IMG/VR virus record: IMGVR_UViG_2915242197_000001
Span: 1 to 34,740 of that record
Source: a virus
Direction: 5' to 3' (one strand)
Length of the DNA stretch: 34,740 bases
This document shows, piece after piece, positions 3,333 to 22,559 of the stretch. The number at the start of each line of letters is the position of its first letter. The first letter of the stretch is position 1. The translations under genes were made by a program, and so were the position numbers. Under the pieces are notes generated by a model, which did no database searches, was not told the DNA's origin, and saw nothing but the letters and a program-made list of their open reading frames with translations.

Positions 3333-3976
3333 ATCTCGATATCATCAGCGGCGGCATGCGCATAGGCTACGCCCGAGTTTCGACCGTAGACCAGAATTTA
3401 GACCTTCAACGCGACGCCCTGACGCGCTCGGGATGCGCGCAGATTTACCAGGACAAGGCCAGCAGCCGCACCACCAAGGCGCGCCCGGAGCTGGAGAACA
3501 TGCGCCGCGCGCTGCGGCCTGGCGACACCCTGGTTGTGTGGCGGCTCGATCGACTGGGCGGCAACGTCAACGACCTAATCACCATCGTCAACGAATTGAT
3601 GGCCGCCGGCATTGAGTTTGAAAGCCTGACCGAAAGCATAGACACCAAGACGCCGCACGGCCGCATGTTCTTTACCGTCATGGCGGCTATGAACCAGTAC
3701 CGGCTCGATGTCATCCATGAAAACACGATGGCCGGATTGAAGGCGGCCAGGGCGCGCGGCCGCGTCGGCGGGCGGCCGCCGGCGCTCGATGAAAAGGGCG
3801 TGAGCGACGCCAAGGCGATGATTTCCGGCGGCATGACGATGGCCGATGTTGCCGCGCGCCTGAACATCAGCCGCGCGACGCTGTACAACACGCTGAACCG
3901 GGCCGAGGCCGCAGACGCAAAAACGGCCGCGAGTGCGGCCGAGGTAAAGGGGACGAAGAAAAAGAAAGCTGGTTAG
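3329..3976 (+). CDS. Small serine recombinase (resolvase/invertase family)
   Basis: It has the N-terminal catalytic motif MRIGYARVSTVDQNLDLQ, then RLDRLGGN, and a C-terminal HTH (MTMADVAARLNISRATLYNTL). An alternative start is at 3356. The longer track ORF starting at 3167 is upstream read-through. Confidence 0.9.
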   Translation: MNLDIISGGMRIGYARVSTVDQNLDLQRDALTRSGCAQIYQDKASSRTTKARPELENMRRALRPGDTLVVWRLDRLGGNVNDLITIVNELMAAGIEFESLTESIDTKTPHGRMFFTVMAAMNQYRLDVIHENTMAGLKAARARGRVGGRPPALDEKGVSDAKAMISGGMTMADVAARLNISRATLYNTLNRAEAADAKTAASAAEVKGTKKKKAG

Positions 3977-4632
3977 AAGACGCGGGAAATTTTCGACTGG
4001 CAGAATCCGATAACCTCTATCGAATCGCCGCCTTCGGGCGGTATCACATCAACCGCGTAAGAGGTATTTTCATAGCTTACGCGGGTTGCCCCTCGTACCA
4101 TGCGCTGCAACCTGGCGACGCGCAGCACGTCACCAAAGCGCACCAGGTAGACGCCATCCGTGTTGCGCGGGCGGCGATCGATCACCATGTATTGACCGTC
4201 ATCGATCGTGCCAAGCATCGCGTCACCGCATGCGCGCACGATCATGGTTTCGCCGGCGGATAGCCCTTGTTCATCCATGAGCGCGCGCGGCACCGTGACG
4301 AACGAGGGCGCGCTCGCGCCGGCTACCAGGTACGTGCGCATATCGAACAGCGGCAAGGCAATGCCGCCGGAATCTATCCCTTCTGTAATGGTGTTTTCGA
4401 CATCCTCCGTTGTAAACCCACCACGCCCTAGTATCAGCCAGTCAAGGCTGCACGCCTTACGAATTGCAATCTTTATGCACTCCGCAATCGGCGTTGTTTC
4501 GCGCGACTTCCAAACGGCTGGCGCGCTCTTGGATATCTCCAAGTACGCAGCCAGCTCTATGTCTTTCTGGACGCCTACCGCCAGCTTCATTCTGTCCACC
4601 ACGGCGGCGACGTCGATCTTTTCGTTGTCCAT
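3973..4632 (-). CDS. CI-type prophage repressor: N-terminal HTH plus C-terminal LexA/S24-like domain with degenerate catalytic residues
   Basis: The ATG at 4632 is more likely than the track's TTG start at 4653. The C-terminal half aligns by eye to the S24 fold: GDAM where LexA and lambda CI have G(D/M)SM, and LRVARL where they have V(T)VKRL / FTFKKL. The gene is divergent from an RHH gene. Confidence 0.8.
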   Translation of the reverse strand: MDNEKIDVAAVVDRMKLAVGVQKDIELAAYLEISKSAPAVWKSRETTPIAECIKIAIRKACSLDWLILGRGGFTTEDVENTITEGIDSGGIALPLFDMRTYLVAGASAPSFVTVPRALMDEQGLSAGETMIVRACGDAMLGTIDDGQYMVIDRRPRNTDGVYLVRFGDVLRVARLQRMVRGATRVSYENTSYAVDVIPPEGGDSIEVIGFCQSKISRVF

Positions 4633-4692
4633 TGTTCTTAGAAAAAGTTTCAAAAAGTAATCTCAACCTAATGCTCGCCAGCAAATAACGGG

Positions 4693-4754
4693 TTACAATT
4701 TACATATTGCAACACAGTGACACACACTATTACATTATGCAAACGACAATGCAA
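4693..4754. promoter_or_regulatory. Immunity switch region with repeated operator-like motif TTACATWWTGCAA
   Basis: TTACATATTGCAA (4700-4712) and TTACATTATGCAA (4730-4742) lie 30 bp apart, with related TTACAA (4693-4698) and ACAATGCAA (4746-4754). The region sits between the divergent repressor and RHH genes. Confidence 0.5.
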
Positions 4755-4901
4755 TCGAAACCTACCCGCGTACCGATCCCGTTAAGCGAGAAAGAACGCA
4801 AGCAACTCAAGGGCATGGCGGCAAAGGAGATTCGTAGCGAATCTGCGATGGCGCGCATTATCTATCTCGCTGGCCTGAAGCAACTTTCCGAAAAGAAGTA
4901 G
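4737..4901 (+). CDS. Ribbon-helix-helix protein, Cro/Apl-equivalent by position
   Basis: RVPIPLSEKERKQLKGMAAKEIRSESAMARIIYLAGL fits a beta-strand/helix/helix RHH pattern. It is the first gene of the rightward early operon. The start (4737 or 4749) is uncertain and no clear SD was seen. Confidence 0.6.
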   Translation: MQTTMQSKPTRVPIPLSEKERKQLKGMAAKEIRSESAMARIIYLAGLKQLSEKK

Positions 4902-5250: not shown

Positions 5251-5273
5251 TACTAACTCAATACTGAATCAAT

Positions 5274-5597
5274 ATGAATACAATAGCACTCTCGCCCCTG
5301 GCGCTCGCGTTCCTGCAACAACACGAAGGCGAACACCTAGCGCACGAAACCGAGCGCCTGGTGGAGCGCTGCACCGCCCACCTGGTAGAAACCGGCATGT
5401 GCTCGGCCAGCTCGGCGCGCGATATCACCATGCAAGCGCTGGGCGAGCTGAGCGCGCGCCGCCGCATCGGGCATATCGATTGCACCAGGACCACCAGCTT
5501 TACTCTGTTCCTGATCGACTCCCAGGGCCAGCGCCGCGCCCTCACGATCGCCGCCCTTCTCGCCCTGATCGAAGCGCCGGTAGTCACCGCCGCCTAA
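5274..5597 (+). CDS. Hypothetical protein (107 aa)
   Basis: Third-codon positions are GC-rich, like the neighbouring genes. It lies in the early operon between ogr and the primase-helicase. Confidence 0.55.
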   Translation: MNTIALSPLALAFLQQHEGEHLAHETERLVERCTAHLVETGMCSASSARDITMQALGELSARRRIGHIDCTRTTSFTLFLIDSQGQRRALTIAALLALIEAPVVTAA

Positions 5598-8447: not shown

Positions 8448-8708
8448 ATGACCGAGCAAACCCGCTGCATCATGTGCAAACATTTCACCCTGCGGCCGCG
8501 CACCAGGACCGGCAGCAACGAGCCATTGCGCGAGCAGGACCGCCAGTACAGCAAAACGGGCCTGGGCCGCTGTGCGCACACCCAGGAAAGCTACCGCTGG
8601 CACTCGGCCGAGTGTCCCAGGGAATGCGCCAAGGCCGTGCCGATCGACGCCGACCAGGTACAGGCCCGCCGCGCCTACATCGCCAATATCGCATTGGTAT
8701 CAACATAG
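8448..8708 (+). CDS. Hypothetical Cys-rich small protein (86 aa)
   Basis: It starts 11 nt after the primase-helicase stop, following GGGGAAAC. It carries CIMC plus three further Cys. Confidence 0.5.
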   Translation: MTEQTRCIMCKHFTLRPRTRTGSNEPLREQDRQYSKTGLGRCAHTQESYRWHSAECPRECAKAVPIDADQVQARRAYIANIALVST

Positions 8709-8765
8709 TAGCGATTGCCGTTATCTTGATAGCGTGTTGATATCGAAGCGATAGCAGCATGATAG
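8687..8765. repeat. 11-bp-phased GATA/TATC repeat array (locus A), candidate centromere-like site
   Basis: GATA occurs at 8728, 8739, 8750 and 8761, an exact 11-bp period (tTGATAgcgtg tTGATAtcgaa gcGATAgcagc atGATAgaaaa). It is preceded by the inverse TATC at 8687 and 8698 (11 bp apart) and at 8722. Confidence 0.7.
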
Positions 8766-8770
8766 AAAAA

Positions 8771-8794
8771 GGGCCGTCCCGGAGGTGACGGCCC
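8771..8794. terminator. Bidirectional rho-independent terminator between convergent genes
   Basis: GGGCCGTC-CCGGAGGT-GACGGCCC is flanked by AAAAA (5') and TTTCATTT (3'). A second hairpin, CGCCGCA-CTCC-TGCGGCG, lies at about 8806-8823. Confidence 0.65.
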
Positions 8795-8833
8795 TTTCAT
8801 TTCCACGCCGCACTCCTGCGGCGCTGTCTCCTT

Positions 8834-9121
8834 CTAGGTATTGAGTTGGTCCAGTTTAGCGACTTCGTCCAGTACCCAATTTTGATATTCCTCAACCATA
8901 GCGCGGGTTTTGACCAGGCCTTCGTCGCTGCCATCATCGTGTATCGCTTGAAGCACCGTGGTCATGCCCAGCGCTTGCGATCGGAAGTTTTGTAGGATCG
9001 CGCGCCGGCGTTCCATAAAATGGATTTTCAAATCGTCACGCATCGGCACCTTCATATCCAGGATGTCGCGGTTGGTCTGGATCATAACGGCCAGCTCTTC
9101 CGGCTTGATCGATATTGCCAT
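8834..9121 (-). CDS. Hypothetical protein (95 aa), last gene of par operon, visibly lower GC
   Basis: A strong SD (AGGGGGAAG) lies 5' of the ATG at 9121. The start is 8 nt downstream of the RHH gene. The composition looks helical. Confidence 0.65.
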   Translation of the reverse strand: MAISIKPEELAVMIQTNRDILDMKVPMRDDLKIHFMERRRAILQNFRSQALGMTTVLQAIHDDGSDEGLVKTRAMVEEYQNWVLDEVAKLDQLNT

Positions 9122-9129
9122 GCTTCCCC

Positions 9130-9423
9130 CTATCGGTTTGCTTCGCGTTCTTCGGCCGCGACGAACCGCGACACCGCCAGGGCGAAGCCGGCCGCGCGGC
9201 TCAAGCCCAGCGCCTTCGCCTTCTTGTCCAGCTCGGCCAGCAGCTTCGCATCGATCGTCAGGCTGATAGGCTTCTTGCGGCCACCGTCCACCACTGGCGC
9301 CGTAGTGCGCGCATGCGCGCCGGCGTCAGGAGCGGCGGCGATCTTCGCTTGTACGTCCGCTTCGGTCACGCCTGGTTTCAAGGTAATGCCGCCGCCTGGT
9401 TTTGCCGTCATGTTTGATTTCAT
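9130..9423 (-). CDS. Ribbon-helix-helix DNA-binding protein, ParG-like centromere-binding/autoregulator candidate
   Basis: The C-terminal KPISLTIDAKLLAELDKKAKALGLSRAAGFALAVSRFV fits an RHH, and the N-terminal tail looks long and flexible. It lies immediately downstream of parA. Confidence 0.65.
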   Translation of the reverse strand: MKSNMTAKPGGGITLKPGVTEADVQAKIAAAPDAGAHARTTAPVVDGGRKKPISLTIDAKLLAELDKKAKALGLSRAAGFALAVSRFVAAEEREANR

Positions 9424-9446
9424 ATTAATACCTCTCTAATACTGTG

Positions 9447-9474
9447 TTGATCTTATCTTGATATCAAGGTGATG
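9447..9474. repeat. TTGAT array locus B with palindrome TTGATATCAA
   Basis: GAT occurs at 9449, 9460 and 9471 (11-bp phase). The palindrome is at 9458-9467 and is followed by ggTGATG. Confidence 0.7.
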
Positions 9475-9479
9475 TTAGG

Positions 9480-10238
9480 TTAATCGACGGCGACCACATC
9501 ACCCGGTTTCAGCTTGTCACTGGCAACGATGCGGCCGGCGGGGTGTTCCTCGTCAGGCACCAGGCGAACGTAAGCCGGCACATGCTCGCCGTTCGCTGTT
9601 GCCACCGCTTGCTCCACCAGCAGATCGATTTCTAACTTCGCCTCTGGCGGTGCGCCCTTGTATTCCGCGATGTAGCGGCCCTGGGCGCTGGCGTGAGAAA
9701 TCGCCTTGCGATCGCCCAGGCGGGCCGTGATGACCGGGAAACCAGATTCGTACACCGTCGCTATCGCGGCGTAGTTATCGCCCTCCTGGCCGGCCGGATC
9801 GGCTTTGTTCAGGAACGCAATGACCTTGAAATCTTTCACGCCCAGCATTTCACGCAGCAGCTTGACGGTGTTCTCAAAGGCCCAAACCTCATACGAGCGG
9901 GGAGCAAAAGGAAACAGTACAACATCGCAGAGCGTCAGCGCCGCACGCATGGCCCCGTTGTCATTCGCCGCCACGTCGATAACGACATCATCGAACTGGC
10001 CGGCTTTCAACAGGACTTGCGCACGCAGCGACGGACCATCCGGCAGCGGCGTAGCCTCGATGCCTGGCAAGCCGGCTTCAATGCGCGCGGTCAGGGACAA
10101 GAACAGGTGTTTCTGTTCATCGTCGCCATCGACGCCCCAGGCGCGGCGGCCCATGCGAGCCAGGCCGGTAATCAGTTGCGTGGACGTGGTGGACTTGCCA
10201 GCGCCGCCTTTTTTGTTCACTACCGCGTAAATTGCCAT
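9480..10238 (-). CDS. parA: ParA-family partition ATPase (deviant Walker A)
   Basis: It starts MAIYAVVNKKGGAGKSTT, carrying the KGGxGKS/T deviant Walker A. At 252 aa it is in the size range of type Ib ParA/ParF proteins. Confidence 0.9.
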   Translation of the reverse strand: MAIYAVVNKKGGAGKSTTSTQLITGLARMGRRAWGVDGDDEQKHLFLSLTARIEAGLPGIEATPLPDGPSLRAQVLLKAGQFDDVVIDVAANDNGAMRAALTLCDVVLFPFAPRSYEVWAFENTVKLLREMLGVKDFKVIAFLNKADPAGQEGDNYAAIATVYESGFPVITARLGDRKAISHASAQGRYIAEYKGAPPEAKLEIDLLVEQAVATANGEHVPAYVRLVPDEEHPAGRIVASDKLKPGDVVAVD

Positions 10239-10272
10239 GATATTTATTTCCTATTAAAAATATAGCTGTTCG

Positions 10273-10301
10273 ATTGTATGGTAATACTTATTTGATATCA
10301 A
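10273..10301 (-). promoter_or_regulatory. Sigma70-type promoter for parA: TTGATA-N17-TACAAT (minus strand), -35 embedded in palindrome TTGATATCAA
   Basis: On the minus strand, TTGATA (10301-10296) is followed by a 17-nt spacer and TACAAT (10278-10273). The palindrome is at 10292-10301 and is followed by ctTGATG (GAT at 10294 and 10305, 11 bp apart). Confidence 0.65.
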
Positions 10302-10321
10302 CTTGATGGTGTAACGCCGTG

Positions 10322-10684
10322 TTACTGCGACGCTTTCGGCGTATGGTCTTCTAGTGTTTTAAGCAACGCTTCTTGCTCAAGTATCGCATCAACGATCGCA
10401 TGACGGACGTGCATAACTTCGCCTGGCGTGCCGTTGCCATTCTTGACCAGGCGAGCCACATGCGCGGCGTTCTCCAGGTCGAACCGCGTAGCCTGGTGCG
10501 GATCGGCGGTGCGCGGGTTGATCGCCTCGCCGTCCTCGATGTCGAAGGCCAGCGGCAAGCCTTCAACCACCACCACATAGGCTTGCGCCAGCACCACGCC
10601 GCGCAGCGCCTCGCCGGCACGCTGATAGCGGGCGATTGCTTCGCGGGTTTCCTTGAGTACAGCGGTCCAGTCGTTCATGTTCAT
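10322..10684 (-). CDS. Hypothetical protein (120 aa)
   Basis: A good SD (GAGGGGG) precedes the ATG, and third-position GC is high. I do not recognise any motif. Confidence 0.65.
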   Translation of the reverse strand: MNMNDWTAVLKETREAIARYQRAGEALRGVVLAQAYVVVVEGLPLAFDIEDGEAINPRTADPHQATRFDLENAAHVARLVKNGNGTPGEVMHVRHAIVDAILEQEALLKTLEDHTPKASQ

Positions 10685-10757
10685 GTTTCCCCCTCATAGC
10701 GCCCGCTGTGGCGGGCTGGTTGATTCCGGTAAGCCCGCCACCTGGCGAGCTGGCGGG

Positions 10758-10976
10758 TTAGAAAAAGTAGTACGCGACGTTGCCGCATTCCTCGTCCTGG
10801 TCTTCGCTGTCGAAGCGCACACCAGGAACGGCGGCCATGATCGCCTTGGCCTTGGCAAAGGCCGCCGCACCGTCCACCAGTACCGAGAACATGCCGGCGT
10901 TGATGAACGTGATTTCAGCGGTCACACCGTCTTTTTTCAGCGCGGCGGCCATGCGTTCCTGGATGAGATTCAACAT
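10758..10976 (-). CDS. Hypothetical protein (72 aa)
   Basis: An SD (AAGGGA) precedes the ATG at 10976. It has its own TTGATA-N17-TACTAT promoter. Confidence 0.6.
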   Translation of the reverse strand: MLNLIQERMAAALKKDGVTAEITFINAGMFSVLVDGAAAFAKAKAIMAAVPGVRFDSEDQDEECGNVAYYFF

Positions 10977-11009
10977 TGTTTTCCCTTAAAAGTTCATGCG
11001 ACAGACTCA

Positions 11010-11038
11010 ATAGTATCTTAATCTCATGTTGATATCAA
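11010..11038 (-). promoter_or_regulatory. Sigma70-type promoter TTGATA-N17-TACTAT (minus strand), -35 inside palindrome TTGATATCAA
   Basis: On the minus strand, TTGATA (11038-11033) is followed by a 17-nt spacer and TACTAT (11015-11010). Confidence 0.6.
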
Positions 11039-11101
11039 CATGATGTATAAATAATTGTGGTTTGATTGCATCTTGATGTTAATACCAACTTGATATATAC
11101 G
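11029..11101. repeat. TTGAT array locus D (palindrome plus phased TGATG/TTGATT/TTGATG/TTGATA); possible rightward promoter TTGATG-N17-TATACG
   Basis: GAT occurs at 11031, 11042, 11064 and 11075, all on an 11-bp lattice, plus 11092 off-lattice. TTGATG (11073-11078) and TATACG (11096-11101) are separated by 17 nt and face the repeat-rich non-coding region. Confidence 0.6.
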
Positions 11102-11110
11102 GGTGCGCGA

Positions 11111-11287
11111 CGCCGGCGGCCGCAGACCTGGCCACCCGGATCTGCCCTCGATCGGCGCTCGATGCCGAGGCGGGCTGCAGGAAGCGCCGGCGGCCGCCGA
11201 CCTGGTGCGCGATCCAGGACACCGGCCGGCCTCGATCGGCGCTCGATGCCGAGGCCGGCTGCAGCGCCAGGCCGGCCGCTACCTGGT
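11111..11287. repeat. GC-rich interleaved direct repeats (modules A and B, roughly 74-84 bp register)
   Basis: Module B is 35 bp, CCTCGATCGGCGCTCGATGCCGAGGC(G/C)GGCTGCAG, at 11146-11180 and 11230-11264 with one mismatch. Module A, CGCCGGCGGCCGC(A/C)GACCTGG, is at 11111 and 11185, with a partial copy at about 11266-11287. CCTCGATCGG occurs again at 11356. Confidence 0.85.
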
Positions 11288-11469
11288 GCGCGTCATGCCG
11301 GCGGCCGCCGGCGCGATCGCGGCCGCCGAGCAGCTGGTCGACCAGGTGTTTGCGGGCCTCGATCGGGACCAGGCGACGCCGGCCAGGCCGGAAAAGCCGG
11401 CCGGAAAGAGCCAGGGTAGGGCGACAGTCCCGGCGCTGTCGATACGGCACAGGGAAAACCGTGCGGCCG

Positions 11470-11770
11470 TGGATTTGCTGCTGATTTTGAGCTAAGTATC
11501 TGATTTATATAGAAACAGCATCCCCGGATGACTGCCGTTTTTCCCCGGATCGGCCCACTTTGTCCACGCCGCCACTTTCCGCCCCTTTACCTCTCTCTCT
11601 CTCTAAATCATTGAAAAGAAAGAAGAAAAGACAAGCAGGGAAGAAAGGAAGTGCGCGCGCCCATCCACAGGCCAAAGGCGTTTTTCCCCCTGTTTTTCCC
11701 CCTGCCTATTTTTTAATCCCCCGATTCCAGGGCTTCCCCCGGATTTTTCCGGGGATCGTGGGGGATAAAT
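11470..11770. other. Origin-like non-coding block: AT-rich patch, (CT)7, polypurine tract, TCCCCGGAT-type repeats
   Basis: An AT-rich patch lies at 11470-11520. TCCCCGGAT is at 11521-11529 and 11542-11550 (21 bp apart). (CT)7 is at 11591-11604 and a purine run at 11613-11651. GTTTTTCCCCCT is in tandem at 11680-11703. TCCCCCGAT is at 11717 and TCCCCCGGAT at 11735-11744, with an inverted copy at 11748-11757 forming the hairpin CCCCGGA-TTTT-TCCGGGG. Confidence 0.5.
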
Positions 11771-12737
11771 TTTCTCGACAAATCAAGCAGTTACATGCTA
11801 AAGCGACCTCATTCCACCGATCCACGGCCCGCGCTGCCTATGGTCCCGCCACGGCGTAACGACTCTTTCTTTCCCGGCTCGCCTTTCTCGCCCCTCCAAA
11901 ACGCATCAAAACCGCCTCTAACGTGCGTCATGTTGCGTCGGGCATTTACCCCTGATTTCGGCCGAAAGCCGCACCAGGGGCCGCTATAGCCCTGCTGCTG
12001 GCTGCATCAAAAAGGGGGTATCAAGCACAAGAGGCTCGCGGGCGGGAGGGTTCGGCAACCGCAAGCTAACCGCGTCCCTGGTACGCCTCCCAGGCCATAG
12101 GAGGCCCGTAGCGCCGTTTTCAGCCTTGGGACGTGAAAAGGGGCGGCCGCACACCAAAAACGCGCCACAGGCCCGGAGAACGCGCCCCAGGGGCATCGCC
12201 GGCGGCCCGGAACATGAACAACTTGCGGCCCTGGCCGTAGGGTTGCGCCAACAAAGGAACCCGCCGGCCCTATCGGCCAGCGGGCGGCGCTGGTCTGCCG
12301 GCCTTCCTGGCCGCTGGCCGCAACCAGGCCGCCGGCCAGTCCTGGCGCGCGCCTTGGCCGGCGGCTTGCCGCCTGTCCAACTTCGCCGCCTTCGCGCCGA
12401 AGCCGGCCAGGATGCGTTAAACGAGTGAGCGGGGAGTACGGAAAGAATGAAGAAACCCCGGTGCGCTGACGGCCGCCGGCGCGAAGTCGGCCGCCGTCCT
12501 GCAAGCCTGGGGTTATGGGCGCGTGAATGACTAGCGCCGAGCTGGCCGCCGCGTCCCGAGAGGGCGCGGGGTTTCGGGCAGCGTGAACGGGGCGCAGGGT
12601 CCGCAGCCCGCGCGGGGTTTGCGCGGGTGAGCCGGTAGGAGCCGGCCCGGTAGGGCTTGGCCGCTTGCGGCCAACTCCGTAGCCCGGCGAAGACCTGTGC
12701 AACCGTGTGTTGGCGTAAGCGTCACCCTTGTTGAGTT

Positions 12738-12808
12738 TTCCTTGTGCGCGCAGCGCAGTCTGGTTTTGCTTTTCCCAGTCTTCCTTGTGCGCCCAAAGGG
12801 CGCAGTCT
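12738..12808. repeat. 43-bp direct repeat pair, each with a small hairpin
   Basis: TTCCTTGTGCGC is at 12738-12749 and 12781-12792. Each copy is followed by ...GCGCAGTCT (12753-12761 and 12800-12808). The second copy contains the hairpin TGCGCCC-AAA-GGGCGCA. Confidence 0.8.
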
Positions 12809-12919
12809 CGACTTGTCTACCCCGCGATCGTGGAACGTGAGGAACAATCTAATAGGGCAAATAAATTGCGAAATTGGGCGGGAACCCGCGCCAGCACTGG
12901 CTTTCTTCGTTGCGAGGGT

Positions 12920-13033
12920 TACGCACCGTGGTGCGTAGTGCTACGCACGGCGGTGCGTAGAGTCACGCACCTGGGCGGTAAAAGGTGCAGGTTTACCCGT
13001 TTTCGTCAAGAGTCTACGCACGGCGATGCGTAG
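12920..13033. promoter_or_regulatory. Three palindromic sites TACGCAC-N4-GTGCGTA (operator-like)
   Basis: The sites are TACGCACCGTGGTGCGTA (12920-12937), CTACGCACGGCGGTGCGTAG (12941-12960) and CTACGCACGGCGATGCGTAG (13014-13033), plus a half-site TCACGCAC (12963-12970). The centres of the first two are 22 bp apart. Confidence 0.7.
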
Positions 13034-13101
13034 TACCATGCACGTTAGCAGTAAACCTATGTCGTTGAATCGGTAAACCTATGTTCCCTGAGCGGCAAAC
13101 C
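12989..13101. repeat. Iterons GTAAACCT(ATGT) upstream of the RepL-like gene
   Basis: GTAAACCTATGT is at 13051-13062 and 13073-13084 (22 bp apart). GCAAACCT is at 13094-13101 (21 bp further). An inverted copy, AGGTTTAC, is at 12989-12996. A TATGAT -10-like hexamer lies at 13104-13109. Confidence 0.75.
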
Positions 13102-22129: not shown

Positions 22130-22559
22130 GCCAGGTAGCCTACGCGCCGCGATCGCGGCGGCCGCGCCGGAATTGAAGACCTCACCGGACAAGTTCAACG
22201 TGTTCATCGACGGCGGCACCATCGTTTCTATTTCCACGTCCATGCCATCGTTTGAATATCGATGCACTATCAACCTGATATTGCTCGACTTCGCCGGCGA
22301 CGCCGACCAGGTGTTTATTGCGCTGCTGGCCTGGGTTCGCACCAATCAGCCCGACTTGATGGACAACGACACGCTGCGGCAGTCGGCAATCAAGTTTGAG
22401 GTGGACCACCTCAACAACGAGACGTGCGACATTTCCATAACGCTGCCGCTCACAGAGTCGGTGCGCGTCACCAGGGACGCCGCCGGCGCGTACCAGGTGC
22501 AGCACCTCCAGGAGCCGGTACCGGACTGGCGCACCACTGGTTCCCTGGTAGCGTTGTAA
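22116..22559 (+). CDS. R: Tail completion protein R (P2 gpR family)
   Basis: MNKPGSLRAAIAAAAPELKTSPDKFNVFIDGG resembles the gpR N-terminus. An alternative start is at 22122. Confidence 0.8.
   Translation: MTMNKPGSLRAAIAAAAPELKTSPDKFNVFIDGGTIVSISTSMPSFEYRCTINLILLDFAGDADQVFIALLAWVRTNQPDLMDNDTLRQSAIKFEVDHLNNETCDISITLPLTESVRVTRDAAGAYQVQHLQEPVPDWRTTGSLVAL

Follow-up and report, generated by a model that had tools for sequence, protein, structure and literature searches.

Organization of the par region

We analyzed IMG/VR virus record IMGVR_UViG_2915242197_000001 over its whole contig of 34,740 bp, here called the window, with a focus on its par region, where genes for a small ParA ATPase and a ribbon-helix-helix (RHH) protein are accompanied by four arrays of short repeats that we designate loci A to D (Table 1). 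The contig ends (1-127 and 34614-34740) are identical, and this exact 127-bp terminal overlap indicates a closed circle of ~34.6 kb, consistent with an episomal phage-plasmid; the source record gives the host as Pseudoduganella sp. FT55W. The window encodes a P2-type virion module (baseplate hub GPD, portal, large terminase, tail sheath, baseplate J, and muramidase) along with a Ser-recombinase (resolvase), a CI-like S24 repressor, an Ogr/Delta activator, and a 928-aa Toprim primase; no tyrosine integrase was seen among its genes in a check that was not exhaustive. For KS14, a P2-like phage, persistence as a plasmid prophage has been demonstrated by experiment, and the paper describing it classed gp41, the homolog of our RHH protein by domain alignment, as unknown and nowhere mentions a centromere (PMC3091744). 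The window ParA is 43% identical to KS14 gp40 and 47% identical to phiE12-2 gp12, and this homology, together with the virion module, identifies the window as a KS14-type phage-plasmid. It combines the P2 structural module, serine recombinase, ParA-RHH pair, and circular episome of KS14-like plasmid prophages (Peduoviridae) and is probably a circular P2-like phage maintained as a plasmid.

Table 1. Arrays, promoters, genes, and terminator of the par region (window coordinates)
Feature	Position	Strand	Description
Array A	8687-8769		Two near-perfect palindromes and four 11-bp-phased half-sites
Array B	9425-9484		Spacer between parA and the RHH gene; exact palindrome at 9458-9467
Array C	10270-10313		parA promoter/operator; palindrome at 10292-10301 supplies the -35
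Array D	11008-11099		~92 bp; proximal palindrome at 11029-11038 supplies the -35
P_parA (at C)	10301-10273	-	TTGATA-17-TACAAT, 10/12; -35 at 10301-10296, -10 at 10278-10273
P_D (at D)	11038-11010	-	TTGATA-17-TACTAT, 9/12; serves the 72-aa and 120-aa genes
72-aa gene	10976-10758	-	First gene downstream of the promoter at D
120-aa gene	10684-10322	-	Directly upstream of parA; conserved, phrog_23407 (function not annotated)
parA	10238-9480	-	252-aa small Walker-type ATPase
RHH gene	9423-9130	-	97-aa RHH protein; candidate centromere-binding protein and repressor
95-aa orphan gene	9121-8834	-	Last in the par operon
Bidirectional hairpin terminator	8766-8802		GGGCCGTC-N8-GACGGCCC; A-run before, T-rich run after

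Type Ib partition systems pair a ParA with an RHH protein that both represses transcription and forms partition complexes (PMC3074162). As a preliminary description of this DNA had proposed, the larger gene of the pair is a parA: its product carries a deviant Walker A motif (KGGAGKST, residues 10 to 17), matches Pfam CbiA, AAA_31, and MipZ as well as phrog_164, and aligns with NF041546 ParA_partition over model positions 1-202 of 203 (101 bits, below the curated cutoff of 180). Pfam and profile scans found no helix-turn-helix (HTH) domain at the N terminus, and the SopA and RepA models cover the P-loop only, so the protein has the size, the Walker-type fold, and the absence of an N-terminal HTH that characterize type Ib ATPases. 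At its other end, a C-terminal extension of ~35 residues (9480-9590, minus strand; ...NGEHVPAYVRLVPDEEHPAGRIVASDKLKPGDVVAVD) is found in no relative (216-230 aa) and places the stop codon at most 12 nt from the palindrome of array B.

The same description had assigned an RHH protein to 9130-9423, and independent comparisons agree. The protein matches Pfam RHH_1 (E = 2.5e-5; 24.5 bits against a cutoff of 20.5) and phrog_18157, annotated "transcriptional repressor" (E = 2.8e-17), and a profile search of the PDB returned CopG (2cpg, 1.8e-4; 1b01) and the RHH antitoxin Rv0298. In an AlphaFold2 model the strand region and two helices (residues 59-72 and 76-95) have predicted local distance difference test (pLDDT) scores of ~90, and residues 1-50 score 51-67. 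RHH proteins (CopG, MazE6, Arc, and FitA) rank first in a Foldseek search with this model, with E-values that are nonsignificant because the RHH domain is so small. The domain spans residues 51-97 and opens with the beta-strand KKPISLTID; the N-terminal tail of ~50 residues is variable except for a near-invariant [KR]P near residue 9 and APDA near residue 32. Pfam, the PDB profile, and the modeled strand and two helices thus give the RHH partner typical of type Ib systems, presumably as a dimer. The public annotation starts this protein at its second Met (93 aa, P0001; window 9411-9423); the first ATG, at 9423, and hence 97 aa, is supported by the alignment of homologs and by a Shine-Dalgarno sequence (GAGAGG) located 7 nt upstream.

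A phased palindrome concentrated in four arrays

The 10-bp palindrome TTGATATCAA, with the core GATATC, occurs exactly at 9458, 10292, and 11029, against 0.00 expected from 100 dinucleotide shuffles, and each copy lies within an exact 17-mer TTGATATCAANNTGATG (9458-9474, 10292-10308, and 11029-11045), as originally reported. With up to three mismatches the 17-mer has 10 matches (0.24 expected), nine of them within 8687-11095. TTGAT-N7-TGAT is found six times in the window (0.05 expected), always on the plus strand and always in loci A to D. Same-strand TTGAT pairs 11 bp apart number four (0.03 expected) and GATA pairs at that distance six (0.2 expected); at other distances tested, TTGAT pairs number two at 33 bp (three turns) and one each at 14 and 17 bp. 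By this shuffle test, which the preliminary description had named as a way to challenge the repeats, motif frequency is far above background.

In 11-bp frames, every locus shows a single palindrome, complete or nearly so, that TTGAT-like half-sites of matching polarity flank, with ~4 units in A, three strong and three weak ones in B, four in C, and seven in D, where a distal palindrome pair shifted by 6 bp is added. The repeat coordinates of the preliminary description are correct provided that its positions for array A and locus D are read as the G of GAT: the GATA copies at 8728, 8739, 8750, and 8761, one helical turn apart, are present, as is the TTGAT series of locus D, at 11062, 11073, and 11090.

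We also scanned the window with a position matrix built from the sites of relatives only, leaving the window sites out. The 14 best scores all fall in loci A to D (best, 40.3), and the best score elsewhere is 15.4; the 95th percentile of the shuffles is 12.9, and their maximum in 100 shuffles is 21.8. Weak scores outside the par block occur at 5261-5284 (15.4), just upstream of the 107-aa gene that precedes the primase gene, and at 22247-22281 (10 to 13.4), where three 11-bp-phased ATC/GAT units lie inside a coding region. Both are at or just above the 95th percentile of the shuffles and so were not counted as sites; they are probably chance matches. GATATC itself (an EcoRV site) occurs 11 times in the window, with 3.9 expected, and 4 of the 11 lie within the four arrays.

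Overlap of the arrays with promoters

At loci C and D the palindrome coincides with the -35 element of a strong, near-consensus sigma-70 promoter on the minus strand, identified in a promoter scan (Table 1). Array C consists of half-sites TCGAT (10270), GTAAT (10281), TTGAT (10292), and TTGAT (10303), and array D of phased TTGAT-like units from 11007 to 11073 plus the distal palindrome pair (11079-11088 and 11090-11099), which lies 50 and 61 bp upstream in gene orientation. Both arrays cover the promoter from -35 to -10, and at the sequence level this is the arrangement of type Ib systems, in which repeated upstream sites overlap the promoter.

Array B has the phased half-sites TTGAT (9447), TTGAT (9458), and GTGAT (9469); TTAAT/CTAAT units at 9425, 9436, and 9480 are weaker. 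The promoter scan called no sigma-70-like promoter here, the best -10 candidate (CAGTAT) matching at 3/6 positions, and the interval between the palindrome and the RHH start codon varies among relatives, from about 12 to 45 nt. It is doubtful that B contains a promoter; B is probably a conserved site rather than a conserved promoter. Of the three promoters through which the RHH protein had been suggested to regulate its own operon, those at C and D are supported by a palindrome that forms the -35, and the one at B has neither a convincing -10 nor a constant distance to the start codon.

An alternative that we consider highly improbable is a role of the arrays as replication-origin iterons, recognized by the Toprim primase/helicase or by some other initiator. 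Phased AT-rich repeats in the intergenic DNA of a plasmid-like element would suit such a role, and D adjoins a ~2-kb noncoding, repeat-rich region; against this, the sites occupy the -35 of par promoters and the spacer that separates parA from the RHH gene, and in relatives they accompany the ParA-RHH pair even where the replication protein differs (KS14 has a RepB-like protein, phiE12-2 a P2 A-like nickase, and relative L008 RepL). The window has better origin candidates in the repeats at 11111-11366 and 12919-13055.

Conservation of the sites among relatives

A DNA-level search with the 3-kb region against PLSDB plasmids and INPHARED phages gave no match, so relatives could be reached through proteins only, and we gathered them via the RHH protein, via ParA, and via annotated phages. 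Scanning for a ParA protein pattern gave no relative among GTDB genomes and one viral relative. The exact 20-mer TCATGTTGATATCAACATGA has four matches in GTDB genomes, none with ParA or RHH genes nearby, which marks them as chance matches or unrelated palindromes.

Among the relatives, TTGATATCAA is invariant in more than 20 distinct elements whose ParA proteins are 43 to 69% identical, and its flanks drift. All relatives from the clade of the window have the exact 10-mer, as do KS14, FLC5, and FLC10; the other intergenic DNA is diverged beyond detection by blastn. In these elements the palindrome is again the -35 of TTGATA-N17-TACAAT promoters, which lie upstream of parA as well as of the small leading gene or genes, and it usually also occupies the parA-RHH spacer, a site position that most relatives share, KS14 and phiE12-2 among them. 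The promoter upstream of parA is kept across relatives L003-L010, with one 18-nt spacer (L004). The consensus of 25 exact sites from nine relatives, atcatgTTGATATCAAcayGATATagagaTACAATC, has an invariant core and most flanking positions below 1 bit; its GATAT(CA) units recur every 11 bp from about -11 to +30 and span the -35, spacer, and -10. The pattern points to strong selection on the sites.

Array D has a fixed geometry. Its units stand at exactly -61 and -50 in 11/11 elements checked, and the -61 unit is present in 21 distinct elements. In an anchored alignment of these 21, conservation runs from -61 to about +30, with a sharp end upstream of -61, and corresponds to 11008-11099 in the window. 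KS14, FLC5, and FLC10 carry this ~92-bp array directly upstream of parA, where type Ib systems classically have their centromere and operator; in the clade of the window, one to three genes (a small variable gene, sometimes a PAPS reductase gene, and a conserved 115- to 123-aa gene) are inserted between the array and parA, and parA has its own copy of the promoter/operator, locus C. The position of the ~92-bp array directly upstream of parA in KS14-type phages makes D the best candidate centromere by sequence comparison.

The preliminary description had offered array A, array D, or both as centromere and had asked whether the arrays persist in relatives that share the par genes. B, C, and D do persist, and as a centromere only D has comparative support; for array A, the remaining distinct elements with this type of operator, 21 in number, have no counterpart downstream of the RHH operon, which leaves the role of A without support from conservation.

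Evidence for the RHH protein as probable binder

KS14 and phiE12-2 lack the 72-aa, 120-aa, and 95-aa genes, yet both have 11-bp-phased palindromes with a GATATC core upstream of parA and between parA and the RHH gene. Retention of the arrays without those genes places the binder within the ParA-RHH module, and ParA has no specific DNA-binding domain. We considered the 120-aa protein as a binder and rejected it, given that these two phages keep the arrays without a homolog.

The type of operator varies with the RHH protein. The palindrome of phiE12-2 is TCGATATCGA, and the beta-strand of its RHH protein reads KKKISMDID, compared with KKPISLTID in the window. We compared 65 loci, which encode 58 distinct RHH proteins, at the position that corresponds to residue 56: Thr there accompanies TTGATATCAA in 21/21 cases, Asp or Gly accompanies TCGATATCGA in 16/16, and the strand QITLTI accompanies TTAATATTAA in one. 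The association (Fisher p = 8e-11) is uncorrected for phylogeny, and the independent switches may number only two or three. Alignment to CopG puts residue 56 on the DNA-facing side of the ribbon. The match between operator type and beta-strand points to binding by the RHH protein itself, and by these comparisons the sites and the RHH protein form one co-evolving unit, whatever the neighboring genes.

More distant ParA-RHH phage loci have other palindromes in the same places. L055 (2960-3000 and 3640-3680) has TTAATATTAA with the beta-strand QITLTI, and L056 (2880-2940) has repeated CATGTACATG with PLSLTM; such pairs suggest a recognition code that may extend across the family.

The window encodes other possible regulators, namely, the CI-like repressor, a small Arc/Cro-like open reading frame (ORF) at 4737-4901, and the 120-aa protein, whose gene is conserved beside parA in the closest clade. 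Binding by one of these would tie par to the lysis-lysogeny switch, an explanation that we regard as very unlikely. Neither in the window nor in its relatives does the CI/Cro intergenic region contain a palindrome; an identical palindrome occurs in KS14 without a 120-aa homolog; phiE12-2 has analogous arrays with Ogr genes upstream instead; and the site type follows the beta-strand of the par RHH protein. The CI-like repressor gene lies at 3973-4653. The ORF opposite it (4737-4901, plus strand; VPIPLSEKERKQLKGMAAKEIRSESAMARIIYLAGLK) has no Pfam match, resembles a second Arc/Mnt-type RHH protein, and could be the Cro equivalent.

Proposed repression and partition by the same arrays

Taken together, we consider it likely that loci A to D are binding arrays of the 97-aa RHH protein and that this protein and ParA form a type Ib-like module for partition and autoregulation. 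The view that the RHH protein autoregulates its operon and uses arrays as centromere, first put forward in the preliminary description, is still the best reading of the sequence. What our analysis itself supplies is the distribution of sites, their overlap with promoters, their conservation and geometry, their co-variation with the protein, and the protein folds; the steps that follow are proposed from these.

In the mechanism that we envisage, RHH dimers would read each unit through the beta-ribbon, on successive 11-bp units of one DNA face, and would coat 3 to 8 turns of DNA cooperatively. At C and D the coat would cover the -35, spacer, and -10, so that P_parA and P_D would be repressed by occlusion, with negative autoregulation and co-regulation of the leader genes as the outcome. 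The same nucleoprotein arrays would serve as partition complexes, in which the flexible N-terminal tails, with their [KR]P and APDA motifs, may contact and stimulate nucleoid-bound ParA and so segregate copies of the plasmid prophage. The ~92-bp array D would be the ancestral centromere and operator, comparable to parH plus OF of plasmid TP228. B could be an internal operator or an extra loading site between parA and the RHH gene, and A a recently acquired extra cluster that is probably bound and may act as an accessory centromere or a protein sink.

Several points weigh against this interpretation. Binding, repression, and stabilization are inferred for every member of the ParA-RHH family. 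The co-variation may reflect only two or three switches in a module that passes on protein and sites jointly. TTGATA, conserved as it is, also simply makes a good -35; that quality alone, however, does not account for the TCAA half, which is invariant, for the distal units, which have no promoter, or for B. Comparison with relatives lends array A no support, and the promoter at B is weak or absent. ParA has no match in the PDB by sequence at E <= 1e-5, which leaves its surface for interaction with a ParB hypothetical. Finally, an RHH homolog in an unrelated plasmid-like contig (L011, 4001-4198), 60% identical over the domain, lacks the N-terminal tail, lies upstream of trfA, and has no co-oriented ParA partner; it looks like a repressor-only relative and implies that some family members are plain repressors.

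The last point bears on a regulon-only explanation, in which the RHH protein is purely a repressor of par and early genes, the arrays are operators, and partition proceeds through another site or adaptor or ParA has another function. It would agree with the "transcriptional repressor" annotation of the PHROG family, with the repressors and antitoxins (CopG and Rv0298) that are the closest solved relatives, with the tail-less homolog upstream of trfA, and with the coincidence of the exact palindromes at C and D with promoters. It sits poorly with the distal units of D (-61/-50), the sites in B, and array A, none of which has a promoter and of which the distal units and B are conserved. An N-terminal tail such as this one, of 50 residues and with conserved motifs, typifies the centromere-binding proteins of type Ib systems (PMC3074162), the RHH gene always follows that of a small ParA, and the par block contains no other repeat family, the unrelated GC-rich repeats starting at ~11111, upstream of D. 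On balance we judge a purely regulatory role to be unlikely.

Array A

Array A contains two palindromes, TTGGTATCAA (8694-8703) and TTGATATCGA (8737-8746), each with a mismatch, and half-sites TTGAT (8726), TTGAT (8737), GCGAT (8748), and ATGAT (8759). A promoter role was considered and rejected, as neither strand has an acceptable -10, in line with the original expectation that no promoter would be found here. The array had also been described as flanked by terminators. This is accurate for one side, where the strong hairpin at 8766-8802 stands; the other side is the 3' end of an 86-aa ORF. That ORF (8448-8708, plus strand) is conserved and Cys-rich, follows the primase gene, and has homologs in L003 and L004; its last codons run into array A, and its C terminus is longer than and different from those of the relatives.

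Array A thus appears to be a recent acquisition specific to this element, and binding of the RHH protein to the other loci would probably entail binding here as well. Whether it was kept for a function is a separate matter, and we put at somewhat below even chances the possibility that it is a nonfunctional or hitchhiking remnant with no selected role, brought in with the orphan 95-aa gene or by recombination of operator-bearing modules, which would be compatible with the partition module proposed above. Of the 22 distinct elements in the operator class, this one alone has the array; it stands beside an orphan gene, both palindromes are mismatched, their 43-bp spacing departs from the conserved 61/50-bp geometry, there is no promoter, and the array overlaps and extends the 3' end of a conserved ORF. 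Set against these points, its two sites score 24.8 and 24.2 on the relatives-only matrix, above the maximum of every shuffle (21.8), its four half-sites are exactly phased and have the polarity of those in B, C, and D, and a protein that binds the other loci would bind such a cluster too.

There is also a precedent for a type Ib operon with a second, downstream centromere: pB171 par2 has parC1 upstream and parC2 downstream of parAB. As in the window (D or C, plus A), centromere-like arrays lie on both sides of an operon for a ParA and a small ParB; in contrast to pB171, the downstream array occurs in one element only of the window's family, and the repeats and proteins are unrelated. Both parC1 and parC2 are listed as parts of par2, and constructs with them are described (PMC4270457). 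A centromere role for array A is speculation, and a relic is about as likely.

Comparison with known partition systems

A close counterpart is TP228 parFGH, which like the window pairs a small Walker-type ParA (ParF) with a downstream RHH protein (ParG) that has a flexible N-terminal tail. In TP228 an upstream array of ~100 bp, made up of short, degenerate boxes, combines a proximal operator on the promoter with a distal centromere, both bound cooperatively by the same protein; parH and OF both bind ParG, and both are able to act as centromere (PMC3130281). Array D has a similar distal-plus-proximal layout over ~92 bp. The systems differ in that the TP228 repeats are ACTC tetramers with 4-bp spacers, whereas those of the window are a 10-bp palindrome and 5-bp half-sites with an 11-bp period, and in that the window has extra arrays between parA and the RHH gene and downstream of the operon and genes inserted between the main array and parA. 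ParG was not returned by the PDB profile search with the RHH protein at E <= 1.

A second counterpart is the delta/omega system of pSM19035, in which a ParA (delta) is paired with omega, an RHH ParB that doubles as a global regulator and whose parS arrays at three promoters (copS, delta, and omega) are also centromeres (PMC9499535). There as here, a single RHH protein is associated with arrays on several promoters (at least two in the window, where the arrays are the sole centromere candidates). The omega sites are contiguous, nonpalindromic 7-bp heptads (WATCACW), in contrast to the 11-bp-phased 10-bp palindromes of the window, and pSM19035 belongs to a Firmicute, the window to a betaproteobacterial P2-like phage-plasmid. 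Nor was omega returned by the PDB profile search at E <= 1, and the RHH protein therefore does not fall within the omega family; by analogy, the window system would work like omega without being a member of it.

By sequence and fold, the closest solved relatives of the RHH protein are CopG (pMV158) and the Arc/MetJ-type repressors, in which a beta-ribbon reads a short (pseudo)palindrome and neighboring dimers sit on the same DNA face; unlike the window protein, these are pure repressors with no N-terminal tail and no ParA partner. The true homologs of the module are KS14 gp40/gp41, FLC5, FLC10, and phiE12-2 gp12/gp11, with ParA proteins 43 to 47% identical and a homologous RHH domain. They share GATATC-core palindromes with an 11-bp period at the same positions, and they differ in lacking the 72-aa, 120-aa, and 95-aa genes and array A, in having, in KS14-type phages, the 92-bp array directly upstream of parA, and, in phiE12-2, in having TCGATATCGA in place of TTGATATCAA.

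Other classes of partition system fit less well. Type Ia systems of the P1/F kind differ in that the window ParA has no N-terminal domain, its partner is an RHH and not an HTH protein, and the sole downstream array (A) is not conserved. In the type II system of plasmid R1, the RHH protein ParR binds 11-bp iterated sites that flank and cover the par promoter. Its motor is the actin-like ParM, and the window motor is a Walker-type ParA; with different motors, the resemblance to R1 is limited to the phasing of the repeats. No actin-like gene is present in the par block, and its ATPase is a Walker-type P-loop protein, which separates the window from ParM/ParR/parC. Of the two models invoked in the preliminary description, TP228 is therefore apt, and R1 ParR/parC applies to the 11-bp phasing and not to the class of system.

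Neighboring genes and other sequence features

Within the par operon, homologs of the 120-aa protein (114 to 123 aa) occupy the same position in L003-L010 and are missing from KS14 and phiE12-2. The place of the 72-aa gene is variable, relatives having other small genes and/or a PAPS reductase gene there. The 95-aa protein has no match in family profile searches, and its sole match among 5.8 billion proteins is itself; relatives have different genes or no gene at this position. The hairpin at 8766-8802 is common to the convergent par (minus-strand) and primase (plus-strand) operons, and the 81-nt fold around it (8755-8835) has a predicted energy of -40.3 kcal/mol (z = -4.24), with 0/200 shuffles folding as well. 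Another hairpin, AGCCCGCCACAGCGGGC, lies in the leader of the 120-aa gene (10690-10757, minus strand), and L003, whose homologous gene has an operator-bearing promoter of its own, shows a near-identical hairpin (about 3530-3550) downstream of this promoter and ahead of the gene; the hairpin is possibly a conserved element of the 5' untranslated region.

Directly upstream of array D, a GC-rich block (11105-11366; 77% G+C) contains direct repeats 74 to 84 bp apart, such as CCTCGATCGGCGCTCGATGCCGAGGC(G/C)GGCTGCAG at 11146 and 11230, and is a possible origin or packaging signal. The motif GCGGCGGCCGCCGGCG beside array D is found again in L003, L007, and L009. A ~2-kb stretch without convincing genes (11100-13080), adjoining the portal gene, also includes three or four copies of a palindromic ~20-mer, CTACGCACGGCGGTGCGTAG, at 12919-13055 with spacings of 22 and 73 bp; these may be an origin or cos-region element. 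No Rfam families or tRNAs were found in the window.

Implications for phage-plasmids

The mechanism proposed here would, by analogy, be the established type Ib/omega design in an unstudied phage family and would not surprise a specialist. The literature that we searched contains no account of this palindrome or of the par locus of KS14-type phages: searches with the palindrome returned primers and unrelated sequences only, and in a 2023 paper on KS14 the string "ParA" occurs only within words such as "paradigm" and "parameters." Three features stand out: the 61-bp geometry of the array, which is fixed; a site conserved in the parA-RHH spacer; and what looks like a switch of specificity by a single residue.

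For KS14-like plasmid prophages, the analysis supplies concrete cis sites: a candidate centromere of ~92 bp, promoter operators, and an internal site. The 2.4-kb block is most likely one regulatory unit, in which a gene annotated "CopG family" would be the ParB equivalent. The small regulon over 2.4 kb that was originally proposed is supported in that arrays lie on two promoters (C and D), with the qualifications that the promoter at B is doubtful and array A is not conserved.

The sequences further predict a specificity rule in which Thr versus Asp/Gly in the beta-strand is paired with TTGAT versus TCGAT in the sites. A far-reaching extension, which we offer tentatively and hold to be possible rather than probable, is that the par RHH protein is an omega-like master regulator and centromere protein of the whole P2-like phage-plasmid family, with specificity set largely by one beta-strand residue (Thr for TTGATATCAA; Asp/Gly for TCGATATCGA). 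One substitution with matching sites would then retarget all operators and centromeres at once and create new partition-incompatibility groups among phage-plasmids that share a cell, and array A, newly acquired, would be a nascent second centromere at an early stage beside an orphan gene. The sites and the predicted rule bear on how phage-plasmids may avoid partition incompatibility and on how par modules may be rewired after genes are inserted between the centromere and parA.

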